From the IMG/VR virus record IMGVR_UViG_3300021516_000018, positions 1-26,268 of that record: a stretch of DNA of 26,268 bases; one strand, given 5' to 3'. Shown in pieces: positions 1 to 26,268 of the stretch. Under the pieces are notes generated by a model. It was not told the origin of the DNA and searched no databases. It saw only the letters and a program-made list of their open reading frames with translations. Position numbers and translations under genes: made by a program. The stretch's first letter is position 1, and each line of letters begins with the position of its first letter. The DNA comes from a virus. Lineage: Duplodnaviria > Caudoviricetes.

Positions 1-1002
1 GGAGACCTCGGCGATCTCGTAGGTTTTCTTTTCGGCCGCCTTGCTGCCGTGAATCTTCTGGAGGTAGTCGACCAGGACAAGCTTGACGCCCCACTTCCTG
101 ACAGCCCGGCGGATCACCGCGGTGATGGTGGCGATGCCGGACACACCGGAACCGGACACGAAGTAGATCGGGCTGCCGGCCACCTTAGCGGAGGCACTGG
201 CCATGGCCTTCATTCCTCCTTCATCGAGGTCGCCGGTCTTGATGTGCTGCATGGGAATGGATCCTACGGTCGAGACCATTCTCCGCACGATAGACTCGTC
301 GGACATTTCCAGCGATATAAACAGGGTCGGCACCCGGTGTTCGATGGCTGCTGCCCGGGCTATTGCGATGGCGATGGCCGTCTTTCCGATGCTTGGCCTG
401 GCCGCAATGATGGCCAGCTCGCCGAACTGGAAGCCGTCGGTCATTGCGTCCAGGCGCCGGAAGCCGGAGGTGATGCCGGATAGGTGTCCCTTCCTGGCAA
501 ATCGCTCCTGGGTAGAGTCGATGAACCGGCTGACTACCGACTTGCAGGGTTGCACCTCTTCCTTGGAGGCCTCAACGGTGAGCCCTGCTTCGGCATTGGC
601 GACGATTTGATCCACAGACAGGGTGGTGACAGCGGAATCACGAATCAGACGGTCACCGGCGAATCGTAACTGCCGGCGGTGATGGGCCTCGAGGACGGCC
701 TTGGAGAACTCGGGATGGTTGGACGGGCTGGCGCAGATCTCGTCGCAGCGGTTCAGCACATCGAAAGGCACCGGAGTCCCAGGCATCGAGCGTTTCCATT
801 CCTTGACCAGGCTCTGGAGGTTGACCGGCTCCGTCTTGGCGACCAGGCCTTTGGTCACCTCGTAGATCTGGCGCAGGCTGTCGTTCTGGATAGCCTCGGT
901 GGTGATCCTGGAGAACACCTCGTAGCAGACATCGGAGCCACCGGATAGGCAGGCGCCCAGGAGGCCGAACTCGTCGTCCTCGGCGAAGTAGGGGTCGCTC
1001 AT
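1..1002 (-). CDS. dnaB: Replicative DNA helicase, DnaB family (3' end beyond window; missing from ORF track)
   Basis: Manual translation from ATG 1002 (ATGA overlap with the upstream stop): MSDPYFAEDDEFGLLGACL...GITSGFRRLDAMTDGFQFGELAIIAARPSIGKT (Walker A)...FISLEMS...LVLVDYLQ (Walker B). Open to the window edge. Confidence 0.95.
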   Translation of the reverse strand, partial: MSDPYFAEDDEFGLLGACLSGGSDVCYEVFSRITTEAIQNDSLRQIYEVTKGLVAKTEPVNLQSLVKEWKRSMPGTPVPFDVLNRCDEICASPSNHPEFSKAVLEAHHRRQLRFAGDRLIRDSAVTTLSVDQIVANAEAGLTVEASKEEVQPCKSVVSRFIDSTQERFARKGHLSGITSGFRRLDAMTDGFQFGELAIIAARPSIGKTAIAIAIARAAAIEHRVPTLFISLEMSDESIVRRMVSTVGSIPMQHIKTGDLDEGGMKAMASASAKVAGSPIYFVSGSGVSGIATITAVIRRAVRKWGVKLVLVDYLQKIHGSKAAEKKTYEIAEVS

Positions 1003-1775
1003 TGGTAGGCCTCGATGTTGGCGCTGGCGGCGCCTGGATTGTTGTTAGTACCGGATGCAAGAAATCCTCGAGGAGCAAAGATCCCTTGGTAGTTGTTCGC
1101 GATGGAATGCGAAACGGCTGCCGGGAATGTCTCAGCGGTAAATTCCTTTGCCCATGCCTTTAGAGCTTCTGACAGGCCGATGCGCTTGTAGCCCTGTTTA
1201 CGCTCGGCTTTGTAGGCAAGCCAGGTCTCGACCGTAGCAAGGCATTCGGAAGTCTGGAGCTTCTCGGGTAGGATAAGGCCGAACTTAACTTCCCAAGGCG
1301 ACTTCGGAGCCAGTGTCTTTTCTGTCTTCTCTTCTCTATCTTCTCTATCGGTTACCCCATGGGTTATCTGTGGGTTAACCTGATTCGGTTCTGGGTTAAC
1401 CTGTGGGTAACCCGTGGGTAACCCATGGGTTTTCTGTGGGTTACCTGTGGGTTTTTTAGGGCGCCCTCCTTTGCCTCCGTTTGACCAGGAGGCTATCAGG
1501 CCGGCGTTCACCTCGTCCCATTGGTGGGCTACTAGGTGGCCATCCTCGACTCGGCAGAAGGTTTGCAGCATGGCCGACCAGAACAGATCGGCATTACCAG
1601 GCCATCGGCAGACTGATGAGAGAATGACTGGGCTCCACTCTGGGAAGATGTTGGTCTTCCTTGTTTGGCAGTGTGACCACAGCCGGATGACGTAATTAGG
1701 CGCTGAGTCGGTTTCCAGAAGCCTCATCAATAGACGGGTCTTCCAGTGATCTAGGAAGTCGGGTTCGATTATCAT
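999..1775 (-). CDS. Phage replication initiator (lambda O / DnaD-like C-terminal domain type)
   Basis: Directly upstream of DnaB. N-terminal HTH-like region, GGKGGRP motif, low-complexity linker encoded by DNA repeats, C-terminal WLAYKAERK...AVSHSIANNYQGIF as seen in phage initiators. Confidence 0.8.
   Translation of the reverse strand: MIIEPDFLDHWKTRLLMRLLETDSAPNYVIRLWSHCQTRKTNIFPEWSPVILSSVCRWPGNADLFWSAMLQTFCRVEDGHLVAHQWDEVNAGLIASWSNGGKGGRPKKPTGNPQKTHGLPTGYPQVNPEPNQVNPQITHGVTDREDREEKTEKTLAPKSPWEVKFGLILPEKLQTSECLATVETWLAYKAERKQGYKRIGLSEALKAWAKEFTAETFPAAVSHSIANNYQGIFAPRGFLASGTNNNPGAASANIEAYQ
1358..1456. repeat. Iteron-like 11-12 bp tandem repeats (putative replication origin inside the initiator gene)
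   Basis: catgggttatc 1358, tgtgggttaacc 1369, tctgggttaacc 1390, tgtgggtaacc 1402, cgtgggtaacc 1413, catgggttttc 1424, tgtgggttacc 1435, tgtgggttttt 1446. A strand-asymmetric pyrimidine tract lies adjacent at 1315-1348. Confidence 0.8.
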
Positions 1776-1778
1776 GAT

Positions 1779-1906
1779 TCAAAAGAAAATCCCCACCAGG
1801 CACAGGGTAGGAGATCGCAGGAAGGAGCTGCGAATGCCTGTGATGGTGGGGATAAAATTTGTCATGCCTTCGGTTGGTTCGACGCTCACCTCCTACAGCT
1901 CACGTC
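1779..1906 (-). promoter_or_regulatory. Structured leader/attenuator upstream of the initiator, with a 28-aa leader ORF (1865-1779)
   Basis: Nested inverted repeats 1789-1798/1844-1853, 1801-1806/1837-1842 and 1815-1820/1828-1833, followed on the minus strand by a U-rich tract. Second hairpin 1881-1906 has a loop complementary to the bulge at 1807-1813. Confidence 0.7.
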
Positions 1907-1915
1907 AATGGGTAC

Positions 1916-1944
1916 TCACTAGCCTACAACCTGCGTTGTGTCCA
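1916..1944 (-). promoter_or_regulatory. Candidate sigma70 promoter for the replication leader
   Basis: TGGACA-17 bp-TAGTGA on the minus strand. The -10 match is imperfect. Confidence 0.35.
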
Positions 1945-1948
1945 GCCC

Positions 1949-2611
1949 TCAGTAAGCCGGCATCAGTATGTCGGCCACCGCCTGGGTGAGCTTCACGTCC
2001 TGGGTGCAGTAGTTGATCGCCGCCTGTCGGTCGGTATTCCACAGCAGGGAGAAGTCAGCGCCGTTTCCGCTCTTCTCACCTAGTCCCAGGTGCCTCGAGA
2101 TGGACGCAAGGCTGCCGTGGGCCCGATTGTCCCCGAGCTGCCACACCTCCCGAAGGTCGACCACCAGCTCCGACCAGTAGCGGCCGTTCCTCAACCAGTA
2201 GGGCGGCATAATCTTGTGGCGCCAGGAGCGTTTGATCAGGAAGGGCAGGTCGAAGGCTTTGACGTTGAACCCGATGAGCTGAGGCTGGCGCTCGTAGTAA
2301 TTGAGAAGCGCCCACCATTGTCGCAGCAGGTGGGCCTCACCATCGGCATCGGCGCACAGGATGTTCTGCTCTTGGTAATCGACCCGGTAGCCGATGCACA
2401 GCACCTGGCCCGACAAGGCATCCAGGGCGGCATTGCGGATGTAGTCCGTTGTGTGGCTCTCCTCTGCCTTCTGGATGCGCTCGGCGATCAGGTCGGGGTT
2501 CTTGATGTTGCCGAGCTTCACGTCGGCTGGGTTAAAGGCTGGAATGTTGAGTTCTGCGAGCGGTAGAGGCCCGGTCTCGATGTCGAAGTAAATGTTTGGA
2601 TTGGCTGGCAT
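1949..2611 (-). CDS. DEDD 3'-5' exonuclease, PolB-exonuclease-like
   Basis: ExoI FDIET, ExoII GFNVKAFD and ExoIII YCTQDV motifs. Confidence 0.88.
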   Translation of the reverse strand: MPANPNIYFDIETGPLPLAELNIPAFNPADVKLGNIKNPDLIAERIQKAEESHTTDYIRNAALDALSGQVLCIGYRVDYQEQNILCADADGEAHLLRQWWALLNYYERQPQLIGFNVKAFDLPFLIKRSWRHKIMPPYWLRNGRYWSELVVDLREVWQLGDNRAHGSLASISRHLGLGEKSGNGADFSLLWNTDRQAAINYCTQDVKLTQAVADILMPAY

Positions 2612-2634
2612 TTGTCAGAGTTGTTTAGAGTTGA

Positions 2635-2701
2635 TGCGCGTTTGTCGGCCGATGCGCGCCCCCGGCACTACGAGTCCCCGACAGCAACAGGCTGCCGGAA
2701 G
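2635..2701 (-). ncRNA. Candidate structured RNA motif, copy A
   Basis: Minus strand: stem CCGGCA/UGCCGG, then GGGGCGCG-loop-CGCGCA. Loop1 UGUCGG is complementary to loop2 CCGACA. Similar to 5590-5639. Confidence 0.5.
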
Positions 2702-2705
2702 GTAA

Positions 2706-3101
2706 TCAGATCTTTTTGCCGCAATGTGGGCAGACGAGGAAGTTAATTGGCTCCCGGGTCGTCGGTACATTTAGCCACTCGCAGATTTCATGATAGGAGA
2801 CCCACCCAAAGCCTCGAACAGCGCCCGGTCGCAGGTGTCCGCTGTTGTAGAGGTCGAGGGCCTGCTCACGGCTCTTGATGCACAGGCGCTCCAATGTATT
2901 GAACGTCCGCACAGAGAATGGGAATCCCCATAGTTGCAGGATCTCCTCGTGCATCTCGGCTGCCTGCTCGATCTGGTTGATGCGCTGGCGAGAGAGTCCA
3001 AAGTGCTGCCCGATCTGCTCGAGGGTCATTCCCTCGGATCGCATACGAACCACCTCAGGCACCTTATCGACCAGCTTAATGTAGGGCTTCCTGGTTTTCA
3101 T
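2706..3101 (-). CDS. Sigma70 region-4-like HTH fused to an RNAP alpha-CTD-like domain, with C-terminal CPHC
   Basis: Likely start ATG 3101 (MKTRKPY). GMTLEQIGQHFGLSRQRINQIE resembles sigma region 4.2. FSVRTFNTLERLCIKS...AVRGFGWVSYHEICEWL resembles alphaCTD (LTVRSANCLKAEAI...TPNLGKKSLTEIKDVL). Confidence 0.72.
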   Translation of the reverse strand: MKTRKPYIKLVDKVPEVVRMRSEGMTLEQIGQHFGLSRQRINQIEQAAEMHEEILQLWGFPFSVRTFNTLERLCIKSREQALDLYNSGHLRPGAVRGFGWVSYHEICEWLNVPTTREPINFLVCPHCGKKI

Positions 3102-3102
3102 G

Positions 3103-3843
3103 TTAGAAGGGCACGTCGTCGAAGTCTGGTTGGTTCTTGGCGTTGATCTGCTCCAGGCGCTCATTGATGGCAGCGATGAGCTGGATGTCCTCTTGGGTCT
3201 TGCCCGGGCTGATCTTGGCCTTAGGCAGCCAGCGCTCGGCCAGGCCTTGCACGGCGTCGTCAGTAAGCTCAGAGATGGCCACGCCCTTGAACTTCCCGAC
3301 GTGAACCTTCACATCGGCGATCTTGACCGGCGCCGCGGTGGCCGGAACCACCGTCTTCACCTGGTCATCTTCCTTCGGCGGCCTGTCCTCCATGCGGATC
3401 CACAGGCCCGACGGCTTGAGTGGCTCGCCGTTCTTGTGAGCCATGATCAATTTGATGTTCGAGAACGTCTTGGTGCCGTCCTGGCTCTGCTCATGGACGA
3501 TCACCACGGTAGCCGGTCGGCCGATGAGGCTGTCCAGGTCGAGGCTGGTGGTCTCCTCGGCGGTAAGGGCCCGACCGTGCCAATCTCGGAGGAACTTGGT
3601 CAGGCCGGCCTTCTCATGCAGGCTGGCAGTCATCGGCGCCGTCATAACCACCCAGGGCTGCACCGGGGTGCGTGTCTTGTCGATCATGTCCAGCTCGAAC
3701 GCGATCTTGAACTTTTGCTTGGGCCCATACTCGGTCTCGTAGGTCTTTAGCGGTGTGATGTCGACGCACACCGCGCGGCCGGTGTACTCGGGGCACGGCG
3801 TGAAGGTGCCGCCTGTTTGTTTTGTTGATACTGTGATTCCCAT
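3103..3843 (-). CDS. Putative phage single-stranded DNA-binding protein
   Basis: OB-fold-like N-terminal region, acidic tail ending DFDDVPF, location in the replication module. Confidence 0.65.
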   Translation of the reverse strand: MGITVSTKQTGGTFTPCPEYTGRAVCVDITPLKTYETEYGPKQKFKIAFELDMIDKTRTPVQPWVVMTAPMTASLHEKAGLTKFLRDWHGRALTAEETTSLDLDSLIGRPATVVIVHEQSQDGTKTFSNIKLIMAHKNGEPLKPSGLWIRMEDRPPKEDDQVKTVVPATAAPVKIADVKVHVGKFKGVAISELTDDAVQGLAERWLPKAKISPGKTQEDIQLIAAINERLEQINAKNQPDFDDVPF

Positions 3844-3867
3844 GTTGTTGCTGTGTTGTGTTGTTGT

Positions 3868-4059
3868 TTACTTGGAGGATTGCTTTTCAACCTCCGAAAG
3901 CTGTTTCGCCATGCGGTCGTATTGCGACCAGTAGTCAGGCCAGGTGGCCTTGATCTTCGCCAGATTCTCTTGGTCTGCCACCAGCGCCGCGGCACCGAGT
4001 TTGCGAACGAATGACCCGCCATATTCGATCATCGTGAATGCTACATCAAAGTCTCTCAT
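3868..4059 (-). CDS. Hypothetical phage protein
   Basis: ATG 4059 overlaps the upstream TGA (ATGA). MRDFDVAFTMIEYGGSFVRKLGAAALVAD... Confidence 0.7.
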   Translation of the reverse strand: MRDFDVAFTMIEYGGSFVRKLGAAALVADQENLAKIKATWPDYWSQYDRMAKQLSEVEKQSSK

Positions 4060-4250
4060 TGGATGATGAAGTCGAAGTTGGTTTTCCAAGAGTCGCCCAG
4101 GCGATTGTAGGTGTCGTGCTTGATCTTCCAGAGTCGAGGATTGCGAGTCGTCCCGGTGTGACGGCAGCGGATCCTGACATCAATGTCCTGGATGGCGACG
4201 TTCCTTAGTCGGTGGTCGGCAGGTAGGTCGTGAAGGTATTGTGGGCTCAT
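4056..4250 (-). CDS. Hypothetical phage protein
   Basis: Start/stop overlaps with both neighbours. Confidence 0.65.
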   Translation of the reverse strand: MSPQYLHDLPADHRLRNVAIQDIDVRIRCRHTGTTRNPRLWKIKHDTYNRLGDSWKTNFDFIIQ

Positions 4251-4447
4251 TTTAACAAGTCCTTGATGTATTGCGTGCGTTGCCGGGTCGATGCTGTGAG
4301 GATATTCTCAAGGCAGACGTGGGCGTTGACTGTTGCGACGTGCTTCCACTCTGGTCTGCCGTCGACCTTTCGAGCTGTATCCAGACTTTCCACTCGGATA
4401 GCTCCGTTGGTTTTGTGAACGTAGATGAAGGCGAAGCTGTCTTTCAT
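4247..4447 (-). CDS. Hypothetical phage protein
   Basis: Start/stop overlaps with both neighbours. Confidence 0.65.
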   Translation of the reverse strand: MKDSFAFIYVHKTNGAIRVESLDTARKVDGRPEWKHVATVNAHVCLENILTASTRQRTQYIKDLLK

Positions 4448-4656
4448 TTGACCTCCTTATCATTCCACAGCAACAAGTCCGCTCTCAGTGCATCGTTCTC
4501 GGCTTCTAGCTGGTCGATGTAAGCCTGTCTCCCGGCTGCGAATCGCTCAAACCGCCGGCACAGCATACCGAGGTCTGCTACGTTGTGAGGTGTACCGTCG
4601 GTAATGGGCGTGTCGCTGATCATTTTCGTGACTTCAGGAATATGATCGCTGCTCAC
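4444..4656 (-). CDS. Hypothetical coiled-coil protein
   Basis: 3' part of track ORF 4444..5142. Likely GTG start at 4656 (GTGA overlap) or ATG 4623. SDTPITD motif and coiled-coil IDQLEAENDALRA. Confidence 0.6.
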   Translation of the reverse strand: MSSDHIPEVTKMISDTPITDGTPHNVADLGMLCRRFERFAAGRQAYIDQLEAENDALRADLLLWNDKEVK

Positions 4657-5108
4657 TTCACGCCCTCCGCAATAAGAGCGTGTTCCAACAGAAGCACCGC
4701 ATCCGCTGTCTTGAGTGTGATGTGGAGTGAAGGCTGCCGTTGCTGCGCCAGGCCCTTTAGATGGCCCTTCCAGCGCGTTCCGTGAGTCTTGCTGGTGCCA
4801 GTGCCCAAAGTCTTCTGCCAGCGCTGTGGGGGCACCTCGATGCACCTGGTGTTCATGCTTGCGATGAGGCCATGCAGGAAGCCGACATTGCGCCCGAAGT
4901 TGAACATGGCGCTGCCTGGTGCCCCTTTTCCGCCGATGTAGCCTCCGACCTTCTCGATGTAGCAGACATCCGACTGCGACAGGTAGTTGACCAGGACATC
5001 TCGGATGTCCCTGTCGGTCGTCGGCATGGGCTCCAGGGTGACCCGGTTGCCGGCGTAGTGCGCCAAGCCGCCGGACATCCCTGGGTCGATTGCTAAAATC
5101 CGTTTCAC
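4653..5108 (-). CDS. RuvC-like Holliday junction resolvase (phage type)
   Basis: ILAIDPG, CYIEKV, SAMFNFG, PQRWQK and ADAVLL acidic catalytic motifs. Confidence 0.85.
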   Translation of the reverse strand: MKRILAIDPGMSGGLAHYAGNRVTLEPMPTTDRDIRDVLVNYLSQSDVCYIEKVGGYIGGKGAPGSAMFNFGRNVGFLHGLIASMNTRCIEVPPQRWQKTLGTGTSKTHGTRWKGHLKGLAQQRQPSLHITLKTADAVLLLEHALIAEGVK

Positions 5109-5242
5109 TTGGCGGCCTTTCGCAACCAGGCCTGAATCGCATGGTCGGCCACCGCTTGCATCTTAAGGCCAGCCTGTAGGCAGTAGGCTCGAAGGGTTTT
5201 GTGAGTTTCGGCTTTCACGTTGATTGTCTTTGGTTTTGTCAT
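5105..5242 (-). CDS. Small ribbon-helix-helix-like DNA-binding protein (45 aa, not in ORF track)
   Basis: MTKPKTINVKAETHKTLRAYCLQAGLKMQAVADHAIQAWLRKAAK. ATGA/GTGA overlaps at both ends; alternating beta strand followed by two helices. Confidence 0.72.
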   Translation of the reverse strand: MTKPKTINVKAETHKTLRAYCLQAGLKMQAVADHAIQAWLRKAAK

Positions 5243-5568
5243 TTGAGATTGCGTTGAACTTTAAGCCAGTAAGCCACCGTGGCAGCCTTGCGGTCCCCAG
5301 TCGGGCCCCCATTCCATCTCCTGGCCAACTGCTCGGTGGTGGCGCCGCGGCCGTAGTGGGTCAGGTAGGCCTGGCAGACTGCTCGGGCCTGCGCCCGGTT
5401 TGTCATGTCCTGGTGCCGGTAATGGCTGCCGGTGATTCGGTTGACGTCCAGGACAACGGCCTTGTGGATCTGGAGGCATCCAATGGCTCGGCCTTGATCA
5501 CCGATGGCCAGGTTGTTATTGCTGCTTTCTACGATCATCAGGGCTGAGATTAAGCTGTTGAGGTTCAT
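5239..5568 (-). CDS. Lysozyme-fold protein, i-type/destabilase-like
   Basis: Start ATG 5568. LISALMIVES (catalytic Glu), GCLQI, LARRWNGGP, YWLKV. Confidence 0.75.
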   Translation of the reverse strand: MNLNSLISALMIVESSNNNLAIGDQGRAIGCLQIHKAVVLDVNRITGSHYRHQDMTNRAQARAVCQAYLTHYGRGATTEQLARRWNGGPTGDRKAATVAYWLKVQRNLK

Positions 5569-5589
5569 TGCTGTGCATTGCTGTGGTTT

Positions 5590-5639
5590 GCGCGTTGGCC
5601 AGTCGCGCCCCTGGGCGTGGTTTAGGCCCCACCCGGGGC
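5590..5639 (-). ncRNA. Candidate structured RNA motif, copy B
   Basis: Minus strand: GCCCCGGGUGG-GGCCUAAA-CCACGCCCAGGGGCGCG-ACUGGCCAA-CGCGCA. Same architecture as 2635-2701. Confidence 0.5.
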
Positions 5640-5650
5640 TAAAGTCTTGG

Positions 5651-5830
5651 TTAGGCTGTCTGTCGGGTTTCAGCGATGACATCCAGCCAGAATGAGATGT
5701 CAGTGCTCACACAAGATAGATCCTTGGACAGCTTGCGAGCGTCTCGCTTGTCGTTCCCGGTGATCCACAAGCGGATCAGCTTTCGGACTTCGGGAGTGGT
5801 CTTTGATTCGGTGTTGTTTGCGTTGCTCAT
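5651..5830 (-). CDS. Hypothetical protein, first gene after the putative early promoter
   Basis: ATG 5830 preceded by an A/C-rich leader; 59 aa. Confidence 0.65.
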   Translation of the reverse strand: MSNANNTESKTTPEVRKLIRLWITGNDKRDARKLSKDLSCVSTDISFWLDVIAETRQTA

Positions 5831-5869
5831 GTTTTGCTTTGATTTGCTGTTGTTGCCTTCGACGTGATC

Positions 5870-5922
5870 AAGATGGGCGATGCCAAGCATTCCGTCTACA
5901 GAGAAAACTGTTTTTCTGTAGA
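5870..5922 (-). promoter_or_regulatory. Candidate sigma70 early promoter with a palindromic operator overlapping -35
   Basis: TAGACG (5898-5893)-17 bp-CATCTT (5875-5870). Inverted repeat tctacaga-12 bp-tctgtaga at 5895-5922. Confidence 0.55.
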
Positions 5923-5962
5923 TTTGAGATAAAACCCAATGTTTGCAGGGGCCAAACAAGGA

Positions 5963-6145
5963 TCAACTTTTAGGAATCGGAGCAAACTTAGCCAGAAACT
6001 CTGCCTTAGATCGAACGTAAATCCGGCCATTATCCACCCGTCGGTAAACCACCGAAAGCCAGCGGTTCTCACCTACTCGAAACTCTGCCTCAGGGTACAG
6101 GATTTCAACGATGAGACTGGGTTTGGCTAGGTTTTGATAACGCAT
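5963..6145 (-). CDS. Small DUF1653-like (SH3-like) protein
   Basis: VVYRR...GRIYVRSKAEFLAKF matches the DUF1653-type pattern. Confidence 0.6.
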   Translation of the reverse strand: MRYQNLAKPSLIVEILYPEAEFRVGENRWLSVVYRRVDNGRIYVRSKAEFLAKFAPIPKS

Positions 6146-6372
6146 CGGTAATGTGGTACTGGGTAAGATTGTCGCATGGGCATAGAAATGCGAAATCGCT
6201 TGTGTTCCATGATGCCAGCCTTAACGGCAATGCTCAACATTCGAGCTGTTTGGGCGCGTTGGAGTCCCCACTCGGTTCCCCATTGAACGACCGTTTTCCA
6301 TTCCTCGGTTGGGCTCTGGATTGTGAGTTTGATCTCGTCGCGAATGAGTCTTAGAAGCTCGGAAGATTCCAT
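6127..6372 (-). CDS. Putative winged-helix protein
   Basis: Start ATG 6372. WKTVVQWGTEWGLQRAQTARMLSIAVKAGIME HTH-like segment followed by a beta wing. Confidence 0.55.
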   Translation of the reverse strand: MESSELLRLIRDEIKLTIQSPTEEWKTVVQWGTEWGLQRAQTARMLSIAVKAGIMEHKRFRISMPMRQSYPVPHYRCVIKT

Positions 6373-7112
6373 GTTTTTTCTCCCTGGTGCCACTGATGAA
6401 CGTAGAGTTGCGCTGAGTCCTCGGTGTACTCGCCAAAAACGATGCCATGAGACCATGCTAGCGTGTTGCGTCGTCGCAGCGCATAATCCATGCAAGGAGC
6501 GTCGGCAAGTGTCCCGGGCGACAAACACACCGGATGATCGCTACGGCGCCCTGTTGCCATGCCTGCGCGATGTGCATGAGCCACCACGGTGTTTCCCCAA
6601 GTCTCGGCGGTGTCTCGCAGGAAGTTCTCCGAGTAAAGCAGGCCATGGCCCCAGGAATAGCCGCCCAATTTATACCAGCTCCTGGGCAGCACGTCGTGAT
6701 GTTTGATGAACACCCGGGCATGGCGCTCGATGGGCTCACGCATCTTGTCCCAAATAGCCTCAGCAAAACCACGCACCACGGTGTTGTGGTGGTGTAGATA
6801 TTTGAGCGCTCGTTGGTCGTGGTTTCCGAGTATGAACACCGTAGGTCTAAGAGCATTTAAGAACTCTCGACCGGACTCAATGTCGTCGAGATAGTCGTCT
6901 GCATGATCCGAGTCGTCAGGGTTGGCCAAAGATCCTGCACGCAGGCTGGCAAGGTCGTAGGCGTCACCCAGGTGGATCACCTCGTCGGGTTGGAACTGCT
7001 CCCTAAACAGCAGCACCGCGGCCAAGGCATCTTTGTTTGCCCGGTTACCATGGCTACATCCGATAGCCATCACACGTTTCCGGCCTTGGACAGTTGTCAC
7101 AGATGATTGCAA
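6351..7112 (-). CDS. Calcineurin-like metallophosphoesterase
   Basis: GCSHG, HLGDAYD, GNHD, GHG and AHAHR motifs. The start may be GTG 7100. Confidence 0.85.
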   Translation of the reverse strand: MQSSVTTVQGRKRVMAIGCSHGNRANKDALAAVLLFREQFQPDEVIHLGDAYDLASLRAGSLANPDDSDHADDYLDDIESGREFLNALRPTVFILGNHDQRALKYLHHHNTVVRGFAEAIWDKMREPIERHARVFIKHHDVLPRSWYKLGGYSWGHGLLYSENFLRDTAETWGNTVVAHAHRAGMATGRRSDHPVCLSPGTLADAPCMDYALRRRNTLAWSHGIVFGEYTEDSAQLYVHQWHQGEKTWNLPSF

Positions 7113-7261
7113 GCATTATTTAAAGTGAAACTCAAGCACTATGGCTGCGCGTTTGATTTAAACAGCATGATGCAGCTTTGTTGTCACAATGTTTGCATGG
7201 GTCACTTTTCGAGATGTAGGGCTCGCCAATATGCTCCTGGGCGTGCTTCGAAGAGGCTGCA

Positions 7262-9958
7262 TCAAGCAACATCGAGGTCAACGTAGCGGATTCTGCGGTA
7301 TTGTTCACCGCTTACTGCATCTGTGTAACTAGCCCCGTCTGTAGTCTCTCCAAAACCGTAAGATCTCATTTTTGACCATGCTGTAGCTGGGGTAATGATT
7401 GCACCGCTTGCAGAGATCACCTGATTGATACAGTCGAAGTTGTAAGATCTAAATCCTTTTGATCCGCAATAAGTTGCGACATCCATTTGAGTTACAATCC
7501 AATAATATTGAGATAAGCTTGTATCATACAATTTTTTAGCCTGTATTCCATTTGCGATAAAAGAGTTGTATTGGTTTTCGTCAATGAAGAAAGACGGACC
7601 CCATTGAAGATCTGAACAAGTTGTTGTTGTGTCTTTTGGTATTAAATTTCCCAACGTATCCGACTGCAAATTGCCTCCAGCATCAAAACTATGAATTGGA
7701 CACCAGATTTCACCGTGAGCCAATGGAACAGAACGGTTCCATGATCCAACTTGAGATTCCAACAAGTTCCAAAGAAATGCCGATTTTGGAATCTTATGAT
7801 AGAACTGACCAATTCCATCGTAATCAACAGCGTTAGCCGTTGAACTATACGGAAGATTGAAATAGGTGGACGCAGTCCATCGTATATCAGCAATGTAAGC
7901 TTGCTCGGTGGCAGTTACAGAAATTTGAGTGTACCAAGGGGCCAAACAAGCCATTGTAGGATTGTTTCTATCTTTAAATACATCGTCAGCAACACCAGCG
8001 CTTTGAACTGTTTGATTTGGCCTTCCGAGTATCCTAACAGATGCATCAACACCTTCTTTGCCGCCCCACTTGTTAATCCAAAAATCAGCTCCAAATACAT
8101 TGGTTACTGCTGGAACAAGCGGATCTGTTGTGAATACTCGTTGAAGGTTGTAATCGTAAACACTGCTTGAGAATCCCCACGGTCCACCAGCAGGAATATA
8201 TGAGCAATTTATAGCAGGATAATAACTTGATGCTCCAATTGCTGTTCCAATCTGCGGAAAAACATAACCATACATTCCGATGTAATTGCTCGGTTGAGCA
8301 ATTATGTAAGTTTTCTTTGCGTATATATATGGGCCGTTAGTATATCCAATTGCTGGACTAAATCCTTTTGACCTCCAATCTGTTCGCAACTCCATTATAT
8401 TTGAAGTGCGCTCATAGCTTGGTAAATCGCTGAAAGCAAGCGCGTCAAAATTTTGTATTCCTACAGCAGTGGATACAGCTACTTGTAATCCAATTGAAGT
8501 TAATCTAACGATTCCAACCTTCTCTTCAGAGATATCAGCTACATCGTCATAATTGTTAAGAAATCCCTCTTCGACTGCAATACGTCTTCGGAGATCACGC
8601 ATTGTCTCCATCCACGTTGGGACGTTTCCAGCTAGCCATTGAGTTGCTGCGTTAGGTGAAGCTACATTCTGCGTGTAATAATATTCGGGATAAGCAATTG
8701 AAATATATGTTGTTGTTGGATTTATCTGCCAATACGGATCAGATGCTCCAAAGAACACGTTGCAATCAATAGGGTAGATCCTAATAATTGCATTTGGTCT
8801 TTTGCTGGTCATTACCAATATGTCACCAGAAATCTGAACATTGATTCCAACCCTATTGAGTTGTTCTAAAAACAGCGTCGTGCCAGTAAAAAACCTAATG
8901 TAATCTTCAAACACTTCTCCAGTTAGACTGCTGTAAATTTGAACTCTAGCGCGTCCCCAAGTGAAGATTGCATCACCAATTTTAGTGTTAGCATCGGTTG
9001 GGTCTGCGTATTCTGGATACAATGCGCGAAGGTCATACATGTACCGAGCATCCACCCAAGCGCCCATTGCTCGCATCCACTGGAGAGCAATGAATGGATT
9101 GGCAATGTTGTTGGCTTTAGCGGATCGCTCTACACAAACGGACAGCGATTCTGTTTGTCCGTACATTGGCGGACCTCCGGCAAAGTAAGGAACGTCTCCG
9201 CTGAAATAAGGGAAGAAATAGACACATGCAGTGCCATCTCTCCAGGTGGCCGCCCATGTTCCGTCAGCGCGTCTCCTGAACGATCTGCAACTCATTGCCG
9301 GAACTGTGCGAACATTTGCCGATCCATCTGGCAATTGAAGCAGCACTTTCATGTCTCTGCTGCTGCAATTATGAACCCTCCAGCAATCAAACCTCTTATA
9401 GGAGTTTAGAATTTTGAAGGTAGCAATTCCTTCAACCCTAATCTCAGCAACAGCGATTTTGTGATTGTGAATTCTTCCTGGAGGAAGCGAAGGAATAGAA
9501 CTAACTGACGAAAAGTATGATCTAACGTAAGATAGATAACCAGAATTCCAATCGTCCCAACCTAAATGGACATCATATTCAATACCATCAACAGTCCGTT
9601 TGTGTAACTCAAAAGACTTTTGAATCGCTTCAATGTTGCAATATGTAGAGTTGAAAGAATTAACATAGTGATCAACGTAAACTTGACCACCACCAACATC
9701 TAAGTGTTTGCTTTCTAATTTTGAAAGCTCAATGGCAATCTGAGTTTGTGTGAGTGTGTTTCCAGTTATATAAAAGCTAGTGTCTGGATCCCTGGAATAA
9801 TCATACTGAACTCCAAATGGTATTTTAGAGTTAAGACCAACCACAAACGGAGTCTTGCCGTCTAAAGTTCTGACGCACTTATTGTCGAAACGAGAGTACA
9901 GATCATTGAGATTACTGGCACTCCACATCTTGTCTTTTCTATCAATTGCCAATGGCAT
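7262..9958 (-). CDS. Large tail-tip / receptor-binding structural protein (898 aa)
   Basis: Last gene of the tail module; aromatic- and beta-rich; visibly AT-richer than its flanks. Confidence 0.55.
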   Translation of the reverse strand: MPLAIDRKDKMWSASNLNDLYSRFDNKCVRTLDGKTPFVVGLNSKIPFGVQYDYSRDPDTSFYITGNTLTQTQIAIELSKLESKHLDVGGGQVYVDHYVNSFNSTYCNIEAIQKSFELHKRTVDGIEYDVHLGWDDWNSGYLSYVRSYFSSVSSIPSLPPGRIHNHKIAVAEIRVEGIATFKILNSYKRFDCWRVHNCSSRDMKVLLQLPDGSANVRTVPAMSCRSFRRRADGTWAATWRDGTACVYFFPYFSGDVPYFAGGPPMYGQTESLSVCVERSAKANNIANPFIALQWMRAMGAWVDARYMYDLRALYPEYADPTDANTKIGDAIFTWGRARVQIYSSLTGEVFEDYIRFFTGTTLFLEQLNRVGINVQISGDILVMTSKRPNAIIRIYPIDCNVFFGASDPYWQINPTTTYISIAYPEYYYTQNVASPNAATQWLAGNVPTWMETMRDLRRRIAVEEGFLNNYDDVADISEEKVGIVRLTSIGLQVAVSTAVGIQNFDALAFSDLPSYERTSNIMELRTDWRSKGFSPAIGYTNGPYIYAKKTYIIAQPSNYIGMYGYVFPQIGTAIGASSYYPAINCSYIPAGGPWGFSSSVYDYNLQRVFTTDPLVPAVTNVFGADFWINKWGGKEGVDASVRILGRPNQTVQSAGVADDVFKDRNNPTMACLAPWYTQISVTATEQAYIADIRWTASTYFNLPYSSTANAVDYDGIGQFYHKIPKSAFLWNLLESQVGSWNRSVPLAHGEIWCPIHSFDAGGNLQSDTLGNLIPKDTTTTCSDLQWGPSFFIDENQYNSFIANGIQAKKLYDTSLSQYYWIVTQMDVATYCGSKGFRSYNFDCINQVISASGAIITPATAWSKMRSYGFGETTDGASYTDAVSGEQYRRIRYVDLDVA

Positions 9959-23101: not shown

Positions 23102-24955
23102 TTAGCTGGCTATTGACTCGCTTGACGTCACCAGATCATTCCAGAGCATCACCATGGCGAGCTGCATGATTTCGCAGTCGTGAAGATGGTCGGGCCATTT
23201 CTGATTTCTTTTAACCCAGACGTGTTTAATTCGACCTGCGCGGTTAGCTTGGGGTCGTAGGACGTGCGAGTCCAGGTGGCGCCAGTAAAGGTCAGGCTCG
23301 GCGATGTAGGCACCTTCGGCCTGGACGCTAGGCGGATCCTGATGGACGCCCCATTCCCGGTCGATGTCGCCCTTCCTTAGCCTGGAGAGCATATCTCGGA
23401 GGTGCTCGGTGTCGAACACCAGGAGGGGCTGCACGACGTCGGTCCTCATCGAGGAAGATGTCGACAGCCCGAAAGGATGCACCGCCCCGGTGGCTGCCGT
23501 GAACCGGGCGCCGGTCTCCCGGCCTTTGAGTGGCATCCAGCCGATTACCATGGGCTTGCGGAGGCCGCCCTCTGGAGGGTATCGGAGCCCACAAGGGAAG
23601 TTGATCGGGTTTGAGGTCACCGAGGAATAGGAGGCACAGGCGTCGTAAACCGTCTGCGTGTTGAAGCCGCTGTCGATGCCGACATCCATGTCATGGACCT
23701 CGAGGGCCACCTGCACCCGGCGAAGGGCTGCAAAGTCGTCGGCATGGCCGGCAGCAACCAGGGTAGAGTTACCGTCTTTCCACTCGCGGCACACCCACCA
23801 CAAGAATGGCGCCACGGCCTGGACGTCGGCGGTCAGGTAGCGGCGGCCGCCATCGACGGTCACGGTGGCCGCGGTCTCGGTACGCTCCTGCTGCACGTCC
23901 TGCTGCTCCCAGGGCTCGGCCAGGTTTCCATTAATAAAGCCTTAGAGGCCGGCCATCGATGCCTTGGCCTCGAGGAACGAGACAGCCAGATATCCCCAGG
24001 TGCACTTGCGGTCGGGGCTGTAGAGGCTGCTTAGGTGGTAGGACCGCACACCAGGCATGGCGTTGGGATTCTCTGGGCGCCATTGGCCATGTCGGAGGGC
24101 TGCCACCTTGTGAGAGTCGGTGATTTTGCCTTGGCACAGTTGGCAGACGTAGTGAGCCGAGGCTCGAATCTTGGCCAGGTCGTGCTTGCCGTCCTCGGCC
24201 TTGGCGTCGTCCCAGGTCACCTGCCGCCATTCGAGCTTGATGTACTCCCGGCAGTGTGGGCAGGGCAGGTAGTAGCGGCGCTGGTCACCGCGGAGGAAGC
24301 GCTGCCAGATTCGGCCTTCGACCACGGTGGGTGTTGAGGTCATAAAGGCCTTGGAGCTGCTGAAGCTCTTGAGTCTCTGCTCGGCCAGGTCCAGGGCGTC
24401 GGCCTCCCGGGCTGTGGCTTCGGCAAACTTGTCGACCTCGTCGGCGATAAGCACCCGAACCGGACGGCTGGCCAGGTTGGCCGGGCTGTTGGATCCTACG
24501 AAAGTCAGGGTCGATCTGGTGAAGTTCTGCTCGAGGTTGGTGATCTTGTCGGCCTCGGCCGGGTAACACTCGAGCATGGCCGGGCTGTCCTCGAGCATGG
24601 GCAGCCAGCGGCTCTTCGAGAATGACCTGGCGAGGCTCTCGGTGGGCATCAGCCACAAGGCCGGGCTCGGCTCGGTCGCGATTAGCCAGGCCAGGCCGGC
24701 CATCAGGGTGGTTGTTTTGCTGGTTTGGCTGCCCCAGCAGAGGGTCACCTCGTAGACCGTCGGATCCTTCCAGCATTCCATGGGCTCCCTGGTGTAAGGC
24801 CGTACCGAGGTTGAGAAGGGCCCGGGGTGCTCGGTCTGCCGTTGGGTCAGCCGGAGCGAGGCCTCGGCCCAGTCGACCACGGTTTGCATCGGTGTCGGCC
24901 GGTAGAGGTTTCGGCGATAGTCCAGCAGGGAGCGCTGGAGGTCGGTAAGGTTCAA
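23102..24955 (-). CDS. terL: Terminase large subunit, lambda GpA family, interrupted by an in-frame TAA at 23942-23944
   Basis: GSQTSKT (Walker A), LIADEVD (Walker B), STPT, CPHC/CQLC. After the stop the same frame reads GFINGNLAEPW...LTADVQ...DSG...DHLHDC (nuclease domain). Confidence 0.9.
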
Positions 24956-26025
24956 AACAAGCGCCCTTCGTGTTGGTTGGAGATCCTGGCCTCGGAGATC
25001 TTGTGGTATTCAGGGTCGCGTTCGATGCCGATGAACCGGAAGCCGTTGATGGTTGCAGCCTTGCCGGTTGAGCCAGAGCCCATAAATGGGTCGAGGATGG
25101 TTCCGCCTGGTTGAGTTATCAGACGGCAGAGGTAGGCCATTAGCATGGTCGGTTTGACGGTGGGGTGATTGTTCTCGGATTCTCGATCCACTTTCCCAGC
25201 CTTGGCTGTGTAGAAGAACCGGGCGCCGGACTTCAGCGACAATGCCGCCTCGTTGCTGCCGTCGTGGATGATGTTGGCAGGCCAACGGCCGACGCATTCA
25301 CGGCCGTCTGTTTCATTGTGCGATGAAACCGGCGTGACCGTTGTGCGGTGCTCCAGATTCTTGTTTCCGGCGCTTTGGTTTAGTCGAGTCTCTGTCCCTA
25401 CTCTGCACCCATCGACATTGATGGCGCCGGTGCCGTACTGGATCACATTGGCGGCCACCGTGCTGGAGAATGGCTTTCGGGCCATGGTGATCGGCTCCAG
25501 GGCAGGCTTTAGGGCGGTGCCCCAGCCGGACCACTTCTGGGCTTCGGGGGTGGCGGGGGCGGTTGCTGCCGCGTGGATATTGAGACCGGCTAAAGAACGG
25601 TCGGCAGTCGGATGACCTGGGCACTTTTCGCCGCGTGCGATGTGCGAGCAATAGGCCGCGCCCATCCCCAGCACCTCCCTCTCTGCCCCGGCCGCCTTGT
25701 CAATCGCCTTGCTGACATCCAGCGACTTCGGGAATCCCGACCCATACACCCAGGCGATGATGTCTCGAATCTCGAAGCCGGCGTCCTCGATCCTGCACGC
25801 CATCCTGTGCTGCGTCCTGGTGCCGGCAAATGCCAGCAGATGGCCTCCCGGCTTCAGCACCCGTAGACACTGCTCCCAGATGGCCACGCTCGGCACGTCG
25901 TAGTCCCACTTCTTGCCCATGAAGGACAGGCCGTAAGGCGGATCGGTCACGATGCTGTCGACCGAGTTGTCCGGTAGTGTGGCCAGAACATCGAGGCAGT
26001 CCCCCAGGTGTAGCTTGTAGGTCAT
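24952..26025 (-). CDS. DNA N6-adenine/N4-cytosine methyltransferase (beta class)
   Basis: GDCLDVL, TDPPY, HPTVKP, LDPFMGSGSTG; ATG 26025 in an ATGA overlap. Confidence 0.93.
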   Translation of the reverse strand: MTYKLHLGDCLDVLATLPDNSVDSIVTDPPYGLSFMGKKWDYDVPSVAIWEQCLRVLKPGGHLLAFAGTRTQHRMACRIEDAGFEIRDIIAWVYGSGFPKSLDVSKAIDKAAGAEREVLGMGAAYCSHIARGEKCPGHPTADRSLAGLNIHAAATAPATPEAQKWSGWGTALKPALEPITMARKPFSSTVAANVIQYGTGAINVDGCRVGTETRLNQSAGNKNLEHRTTVTPVSSHNETDGRECVGRWPANIIHDGSNEAALSLKSGARFFYTAKAGKVDRESENNHPTVKPTMLMAYLCRLITQPGGTILDPFMGSGSTGKAATINGFRFIGIERDPEYHKISEARISNQHEGRLF

Positions 26026-26268
26026 TTCCATGGGTCGGTGTTGTGTAGTGTCTTGAGCGCCACCTCCTGGACCCACCGGGTCAGCTCGCGCTCGGCGTGC
26101 TCGGGGTCGTGCGGTGCTATCCGGCCGGAGAGCTGCTTCGGCATGGCCTTAATGAGCGAGGCCACGGCGCCGTCATGCTCCTGCATCACCCGCCGCACCC
26201 AGTCGCCGGAGACTAGGCGGCGCTCCTTCTCGGCCTGGGTGATCACCTCGTCCCTGGCGCTTGTGAGG
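26022..26268 (-). CDS. Probable terminase small subunit, C-terminal part (5' end beyond window)
   Basis: EKERRLVS...LIKAMPKQLSGRIA resembles Nu1-like C-termini; upstream of the methylase and terL. Confidence 0.6.
   Translation of the reverse strand, partial: LTSARDEVITQAEKERRLVSGDWVRRVMQEHDGAVASLIKAMPKQLSGRIAPHDPEHAERELTRWVQEVALKTLHNTDPWK

Follow-up and report, generated by a model that had tools for sequence, protein, structure and literature searches.

We found that a 26,268-nucleotide stretch of phage DNA (the whole of it hereafter called the window) contains two intergenic copies of a small RNA element whose conserved unit, as predicted from compensatory base changes, is an H-type pseudoknot of ~26-32 nt. 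The pseudoknot is a real and widespread structured RNA family that we found in no catalogue, and its function is a predicted one: its closest kind would be the compact-barrier pseudoknots, and we tentatively favor a role as a protein-free nuclease barrier that, once the transcript is cut just downstream, would cap the upstream message at its 3' terminus. Among the functions proposed in an earlier reading of the same DNA (the first-pass annotation), a processing or stability role is the best guess.

All recognisable genes of the 26.3-kb window lie on its minus strand, including those for a DnaB helicase, a replication initiator, a 3'-5' exonuclease, an HTH protein, an SSB-like protein, a Holliday junction resolvase, and tail, head and terminase genes. 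Megablast of window positions 1-25000 found no near relative among cultured phages, and uncultured relatives were represented by 80 loci, with exonucleases that are 78-97% identical. Exactly two matches to the core GGGGCGCG..CGCGCA are present, at 2635-2662 and at 5589-5611 of the minus strand, where 100 shuffles gave an expectation of 0.00; this bears out the earlier claim of a core shared by two intergenic copies; a model built from 92 copies detected no third copy in the window. Copy A (2635..2666, minus strand) follows a gene for a sigma70 region 4-like HTH protein with a C-terminal CxxC (2706..3101, minus; PF04545, E 8.8e-08) and precedes a gene for a PolB-type 3'-5' exonuclease (1949..2611, minus; PF10108, E 3.6e-12; phrog_403), whose leader (2612..2634, minus) comprises 23 A/C-rich nucleotides without a Shine-Dalgarno motif and ends at the ATG. 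Copy B (5589..5614, minus strand) is situated between a 59-aa gene with no family match (5651..5830, minus) and a 109-aa gene with no Pfam or PHROG match (5239..5568, minus), which, by eye, we take to be lysozyme/SLT-like. The ATG lies 23 nt from the core in copy A and 20 nt from it in copy B, in keeping with the ~21-23 nt given earlier. The elements had also been described as lying just after a stop codon, which is true of their 5' modules (7 and 11 nt from the stop) and not of the cores, where the stop is separated from the first G of the GGG by 43 nt in copy A and 39 nt in copy B. A search of window 1-7300 for sigma70-type promoters gave none on the minus strand.

The predicted fold consists of two helices and three loops with the consensus S1a-GGG-RNGCG-(2-3-nt L2)-S1b-L3 ending AA-CGCNY-A. 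In copy A, S1 pairs 2666-2663 (S1a, GCCG) with 2651-2648 (S1b, CGGC) and S2 pairs 2659-2655 (S2a) with 2640-2636 (S2b), followed by the conserved A at 2635, while the loops are L1 at 2662-2660 (GGG), L2 at 2654-2652 (CAU) and L3 at 2647-2641, ending in AA. In copy B, S1 is formed by 5614-5612 (CCA) with 5601-5599 (UGG) and S2 by 5608-5604 with 5594-5590, with L1 at 5611-5609, L2 at 5603-5602 (AC), L3 at 5598-5595 and the terminal A at 5589. Both folds are backed by covariation. Copy A matches our covariance model R1 with an E of 0.038, and the match of copy B, a member of the R1 training set, is by construction. The copies represent two subtypes, one with an A-U closing pair and a 2-nt L2 (subtype I, 118/180, including copy B) and one with a G-C closing pair and a 3-nt L2 (subtype II, 38/180, including copy A).

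Scanning IMG/VR for the core yielded 121 loci with 98 distinct matches, in 52 of which the bases directly 5' of GGGG form at least 3 Watson-Crick pairs with the hairpin loop, compared to 10.3 +/- 3.0 of 98 for shuffled upstream sequences; the rest are 2-bp cases and chance matches. This excess of S1 pairs over shuffles points to an H-type pseudoknot as the core unit. With several pairs left unconstrained in a degenerate scan (100 distinct matches), Watson-Crick pairing was observed at S1 pair 2, left free by the pattern, in 94 (37 when shuffled), at S1 pair 3 in 72 (28 shuffled) and at S2 pair 2 in 92 (47 shuffled), and S1 pair 4 was hardly above chance (34 versus 24). When 92 copies of fixed length were aligned without gaps, 90.3% of the cells paired and 143 were compensated versus 52 upon shuffling, a level reached by none of 500 shuffles, although this figure is no probability, as the 92 rows are partly related and pattern-selected. 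S1 has only 3-6 bp in the filtered set and no fixed sequence, and its hairpin loop measures 10-11 nt (GGG plus 5 nt plus 2-3 nt). When the three inner S2 pairs were left free, GCG/CGC appeared in all 73 fully paired matches (of 105), and when L1 was left free, it read GGG in 98/99; the 3' base was A in 87/98. The AA before S2b and the L2 bases are fixed by the search patterns, and their invariance is thus not independent; this includes the C of L2 in subtype I, which is invariant in the alignment and fixed by most patterns.

The first-pass annotation had drawn a different fold, with two abutting hairpins joined by loop-loop pairing in both copies, and had offered a put-like antiterminator as one possible function. 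Its stem GCGCG/CGCGC is real and corresponds to S2, and its broader proposal of a conserved pseudoknotted cis-acting RNA with homologues and covariation proved correct. Its stem 1 and the kissing-loop architecture did not hold up, and most members of the family lack a 5' hairpin. The complementary loop segments are present in both window copies, but in neither is their pairing compensated among orthologues. For copy A, single-sequence folding places UGUCGG in a local hairpin, with unremarkable energies relative to shuffles (z 0.83 for copy A, and -0.47) from a program that cannot form pseudoknots; the loop-loop helix is 79.9% paired in 23 orthologues, shows no compensatory change and has one pair broken in 15 of them, and the whole earlier model is matched by 78/500 shuffles. 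The corrected model (hairpin 2678-2698 plus pseudoknot) is 99.2% paired with 6 compensated pairs, which 0/500 shuffles match. For copy B, the GGCC/GGCC helix is pairable at 94.7% in 19 orthologues, such that an alternative conformer is conceivable there, but it shows no compensatory change and has one pair broken in 4/19, in which the same loop base covaries with an upstream base instead; the copy-B set alone is less decisive. Moreover, loop-loop pairing would consume bases of S1, which covaries across the family. HK022 put consists of two stem-loops in a promoter-proximal position, and the likeness to it is that of a cis-acting RNA in a phage early operon. The motif, by contrast, is a pseudoknot that phages of several phyla carry at internal boundaries, so that put-like antitermination fits poorly with both host range and position, and we give the two-hairpin antiterminator hardly any credence.

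The 5' parts of the two copies are, by their predicted folds, unrelated lineage-specific modules rather than the same architecture, and only the core is common to both. Copy A is preceded by a lineage-specific 8-bp hairpin with the loop CUGUU (2678..2698, minus), also seen in the single-sequence fold, which takes up the 5' arm of the formerly proposed stem 1 together with loop 1 and is 98.9% paired in the 23 orthologues, with 4/8 pairs compensated. Its CUGU is nearly invariant, and the linker to the core (2667..2677, minus), conserved in the copy-A lineage alignment, contains a GACUCRU that is kept in a locus without the hairpin (L088) and can form a hairpin of its own in another (L010). UGU of the hairpin loop could pair with ACA in L3, both being invariant and carrying no covariation information; ACA is also found in copies without the hairpin. 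In the copy-B lineage, the covariation of the loop base with an upstream base suggests that another H-type pseudoknot, specific to this lineage and different from the core, immediately precedes copy B in tandem (5615..5639, minus); in it, 5639-5636 would pair with the loop 5628-5625 and the stem 5634-5629 with 5620-5615 (one mismatch in the window copy), with a 1-2-nt L1 and a 6-bp stem 2. Among the 19 orthologues, each of its helices has 1 compensated pair (0/500 shuffles), and one pair is out of register in 11/19.

The core is near-invariant across tailed phages of several bacterial phyla, a microvirus and some chromosomes. The collected loci contain at least 197 distinct cores, and three overlapping patterns gave estimates of ~770, 520 and 2000 matching stretches in IMG/VR, which are stretches rather than genomes and in part chance, along with about 490 matching stretches estimated from a metagenome scan. 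In 80 motif loci totalling 934 kb, 91 copies lie on the strand of the anchor (the 80 anchors and 11 extra) versus 0 on the opposite strand, and shuffles of these loci give 0.4 copies. Intergenic copies are carried by Corynebacterium phage BFK20, the mycobacteriophages Vincenzo and Rosebush (two copies), Microbacterium phage Pumpernickel, E. coli phage Ro121c4YLVW (with S1 short or shifted), the uncultured crAss-like phage cr50_1 and a Microviridae genome, and the BLAST listing alone adds other cluster-B mycobacteriophages and phi674. BLAST matches in Pantoea, Shewanella and Gordonia were partial, inside annotated genes, and were not counted. A GTDB scan gave 120 matches, most of them attributable to chance; 18 pass the descriptor, and a few of these look like chance in coding DNA. 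Upon comparing 10 GTDB loci with PHROGs (8 passing, plus L216 and L238 with a 3' base G), several were found among phage-type genes, and L218, L220 and L270 are apparently chromosomal. Descriptor-passing copies lie directly after zinT in a Rhodobacteraceae locus (L218) and directly after a 5'-nucleotidase gene in Microcystis (L220), both apparently host genes. A Frankiaceae MAG carries, seemingly in its chromosome, a WhiB-like gene (by eye), the knot, tRNA-Arg and rtcB (L270:1417-1540, minus), and in L020 a YrlA-like RNA (below gathering score) is followed by the knot and tRNA-Glu; these two contexts hint at a link with RNA-repair operons.

Upon dereplicating 569 instances to 150 contexts, we observed a narrow spacing from the upstream gene. 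The stop codon ends 8-13 nt before the GGG in 87 of the 150, compared to 1.9% of random positions, whereas a distance of 0-7 nt occurs in 2 contexts, compared to 2.3% of random positions. Where a stop lies within 20 nt (108 contexts), S1 begins 4-7 nt past it in 65 and closer in 1. The stop codons themselves (n=141) were TAA in 96, TGA in 29 and TAG in 16. An ATG lies downstream in 125/150, at a median of 19 nt (IQR 15-26) and thus with a broader spacing than that of the stop. The leaders are A/C-rich and G-poor (280 G in 3367 nt), with Shine-Dalgarno motifs in 17/156, and the downstream 25-mers are unstructured, 22/190 folding at -2 kcal/mol or better with a median of 0. A readthrough or frameshift element was considered and excluded, given a gap without frame bias (gap mod 3 of 0, 1 and 2 in 23, 34 and 36 of 93 contexts) and a downstream frame that is closed in 50/93.

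As the mRNA entrance of a terminating ribosome lies about 4-7 nt past the stop, the S1 spacing would put the knot right at this entrance, where it might act as a translational insulator that blocks scanning for re-initiation or aids the loading of ribosomes on the leader. The leaders are G-poor, and coremin pseudoknots block scanning ribosomes (PMC10520033). We nevertheless regard insulation as doubtful, since some copies have no adjacent ribosome, lying after a tRNA or a YrlA-like RNA and before a tRNA (L079, L020), and since the stop spacing may reflect merely the avoidance of melting in compact genomes.

The downstream genes have no common function: 78/111 downstream proteins have no PHROG match, and the others include RecT, Erf, Sak4, exonucleases and endonucleases. 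This argues against a site for a conserved host protein or a small ligand, be it an operator, an antiterminator or an aptamer, as does the presence of tRNAs downstream and the span of carriers across actinobacterial, Bacteroidetes-type and enterobacterial phages; Rfam gave no riboswitch match. The guanidine-III aptamer has a topology that resembles this pseudoknot, and invariant bases in a loop and a helix are typical of a recognition surface or pocket, but on balance we judge such a site improbable.

The T4 gene 32 operator, a pseudoknot followed by an unstructured leader before the ATG, lies in the leader of the SSB gene that it controls. The motif shares this layout with the operator, which is mentioned in PMC10690425, but it is not tied to a downstream SSB; SSB-like genes, if anything, lie upstream. 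By PHROG, 0/111 downstream proteins are SSBs, and no copy precedes the SSB-like gene of the window (3103-3843; acidic PF tail; phrog_862, of unknown function), so that SSB autoregulation was rejected. Upstream genes end in PF, as in an SSB-like tail, in 10/166 cases versus 33/1569 background ORFs (p 0.006), an excess that is small and that uses the PF ending as a crude marker for SSB; major capsid genes are also found upstream of the motif.

We compared the motif with the coremin RNAs of the xrRNA-C and xrRNA-WCC types, drawing on PMC10321173 and PMC10520033. The motif and coremin are both small H-type pseudoknots that are found behind ORFs and between genes. The closest known element is the Watson-Crick coremin, as in the Xrn1-resistant Hit2 (PMC10321173), which has the same GCG..AA-CGC core, with a loop GGCG that pairs with CGCU, a GCG/CGC stem 2 after a G bridge and an A-rich last loop. 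Like WCC, the motif has a Watson-Crick stem 2, a G-C junction pair and an A-rich spacer (GCG/CGC in 73/73, with the AA fixed by the pattern). Other features differ, however: coremin has a 4-bp hp1 with a loop of 4-8 nt (YGAD, YGNNAD, or G plus the 3-nt stem-2 strand; PMC10321173, PMC10520033), as opposed to the 10-11-nt S1 loop of the motif; WCC has a single G and no linker in place of the GGG of L1 and the 2-3-nt L2; and its stem 2 has 3 bp instead of 5. The downstream hairpin hp2, which is required for the Xrn1 resistance of coremin (PMC10321173, PMC10520033), has no counterpart in the unstructured sequence behind the motif. Its carriers, furthermore, are DNA phages of bacteria, unlike those of coremin. 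With a shared core and a different loop, L1/L2 and downstream side, the motif may work like an xrRNA without being a member of that class.

It is accordingly possible, though not likely, that the knot is a 5'-to-3' barrier of the xrRNA type, shielding the downstream cistron by stalling RNase J, scanning by RNase E, or Rho. The frequent downstream ATG agrees with this, and in PMC9943677 an H-type pseudoknot impedes scanning by RNase E the more, the more coaxial pairs it has, as with the BWYV and VPK knots, which resemble the motif in being H-type, in their 8-9 coaxial pairs and in residing in a bacterial message; these are engineered reporter inserts, whereas the motif is a natural, sequence-conserved family. 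A size of 8-9 coaxial pairs is, however, that of the weakest obstacle in that study. Also speaking against a 5' barrier are the missing second hairpin of coremin, the fact that S1, the side facing a 5'-3' enzyme, is the least conserved part, an RNase J below the cut-off in 2/5 MAG carriers (incomplete genomes), and the little profit that a downstream tRNA would draw from it.

A tRNA called by ARAGORN lies downstream in 6/150 contexts, at a gap of 2-10 nt, and gene-knot-tRNA units with such gaps were found in cr50_1, Pumpernickel, L505, L249 and L270. Such units bear on our preferred reading, the capping of the upstream message at its 3' end. The GGG is predicted to line the major groove of the GCG/CGC helix, with the AA filling the minor groove of S1, contacts by which a small triple helix could lock the 3' strand in place, and a spacing of 4 nt or more behind the stop would hold S1 clear of the terminating ribosome. 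RNase P before tRNAs, an arrangement checked by geometry alone, or an enzyme of the RNase E/G/Y type cutting within the A/C/U-rich leader before ATGs would then free a 3' end behind the knot, and a tail of 2-10 nt would be too short for the loading of 3'-5' exonucleases. We favor this cap because conservation is concentrated on the 3' helix and on the G-rich strand predicted to clamp it, with invariance on the 3' helix and L1 while S1 is short and free; because in the gene-knot-tRNA units an RNase P cut would yield a message that ends in the knot plus a tail of 2-10 nt; and because the second hairpin that coremin requires is absent. Because RNase P processing would remove any knot on the 5' side of a tRNA, it is plausibly the upstream message that profits. 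A barrier at cistron boundaries fits best with an element that is self-contained, host-spanning, placed outside the terminating ribosome and indifferent to downstream content. The strand bias of the copies, the stop spacing and the small excess of upstream genes with a PF ending are also in line with the cap. Independence from RNase J also fits the hosts, RNase J being above the cut-off in 3/5 MAG carriers (incomplete genomes) and one carrier being an E. coli phage; beta- and gamma-proteobacteria depend almost only on RNase E/G, as stated in PMC3997798.

Several observations nonetheless weigh against the 3' cap. With an ARAGORN tRNA in just 6/150 contexts, a cut behind the knot has to be postulated in the 125 that have an ATG; the stop spacing suits any model in which the knot needs to remain folded; and both window cores are 39-43 nt from the stop, behind extra modules. 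Since a plain hairpin can cap a 3' end too, a cap does not demand sequence invariance. Poorly explained, finally, are a tRNA-knot-tRNA arrangement in locus L079 and two loci, L379 and L691 (E. coli phage Ro121c4YLVW), in which a terminator-like hairpin with a U-run follows within ~40 nt of the knot with no intervening cistron (by eye); a terminator script returned 0/150 contexts, yet missed the L379 case seen by eye, and is not a valid count. In MALAT1 and NEAT1, an RNase P cut at a tRNA-like mascRNA leaves the upstream 3' end capped by a triple helix. This logic resembles that of the 3' cap, with no homology claimed, as those RNAs are eukaryotic and much larger and use a U-A-U triplex. If the knot does cap or shield message ends, it would be a general phage device for setting different gene levels on one transcript, would parallel in bacteria the viral xrRNAs or the triple-helix caps coupled to RNase P, and would provide synthetic operons with a portable 30-nt part; Rosebush, Vincenzo, BFK20, phi674 and Pumpernickel are cultured carriers that grow on harmless laboratory hosts.

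A position at gene and tRNA boundaries could also call to mind a very small, new class of self-cleaving ribozyme that cuts polycistronic phage RNA there with no host enzymes. Theta ribozymes sit at the 3' trailer of tRNAs, whereas the motif sits 5' of tRNAs, and the known natural ribozyme classes are, to our knowledge, all larger than 26-32 nt. The boundary and tRNA-array contexts are like those of phage ribozymes (theta; PMC10879173), the likeness to theta and minimal HDV-like ribozymes being that of a small pseudoknotted RNA near phage tRNAs, and host independence together with the invariant bases, including the mostly pattern-fixed C of L2 in subtype I, would agree with catalysis. According to PMC10879173, HDV-like and theta ribozymes have a nested double pseudoknot and a catalytic C in J4/2, as opposed to the two helices and single pseudoknot of the motif. 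As the gap to tRNA 5' ends varies between 2 and 10 nt, exact tRNA maturation would be impossible, and we consider a ribozyme function unlikely. Degenerate tRNA-like sequences, none of which ARAGORN calls a tRNA, were also seen after the knot in L467, L513, L677, L700, L104 and L059, with an SSB-like gene upstream of the knot in L467 and L513. By eye, consensus-like -35/-10 hexamers in L104:230-330 are followed by a hairpin and the knot, with a tRNA-like unit and two tRNAs behind, which would give a putative transcript without a coding sequence upstream of the knot.

The earlier remark that the element matches no named family agrees with Rfam 15, which has no match over either copy (whole window at E<=5; 2560-2760 at E<=10) or over the motif in 20+20+8 other loci, where the only matches were to tRNAs, YrlA-like RNAs and weak unrelated families. 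We found no published description of the motif in the literature, in which subscription papers are poorly covered. Six supplementary files of PMC10690425 contain no motif match; further supplements of PMC10690425 and of bioRxiv 10.64898/2026.10.21.760802 may include it as an unnamed candidate.

Gene swaps flank the motif on both sides, in 18/198 upstream versus 22/165 downstream clusters, so that inheritance gives no direction as to which cistron is served. In related phages, such swaps break at the motif on either side (window 5589 and 5614), and the motif may also serve as recombination homology for cassette exchange. A freshwater metatranscriptome in the form of contigs, which show no ends, strand or level, contains 0.13 of the window's words; a loose end at 5589 and a joint at 5614 are each seen in one contig (min_likeness 85, side 29 nt), only a hint of gene swaps in relatives. 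Elsewhere in the window, an origin-like cluster of GGGTTA/TAACCC-type inverted and direct repeats lies within the replication-initiator gene (1350-1452), and an 898-aa gene (7262-9958, minus) with a G+C far below that of its surroundings and no PHROG match is possibly an acquired receptor-binding or tail gene. At 23942-26076 (minus), an ORF for a DNA methyltransferase overlaps the beginning of a 337-aa ORF whose match to the terminase profile is confined to positions 342-666, and the terminase gene may be split or interrupted there.
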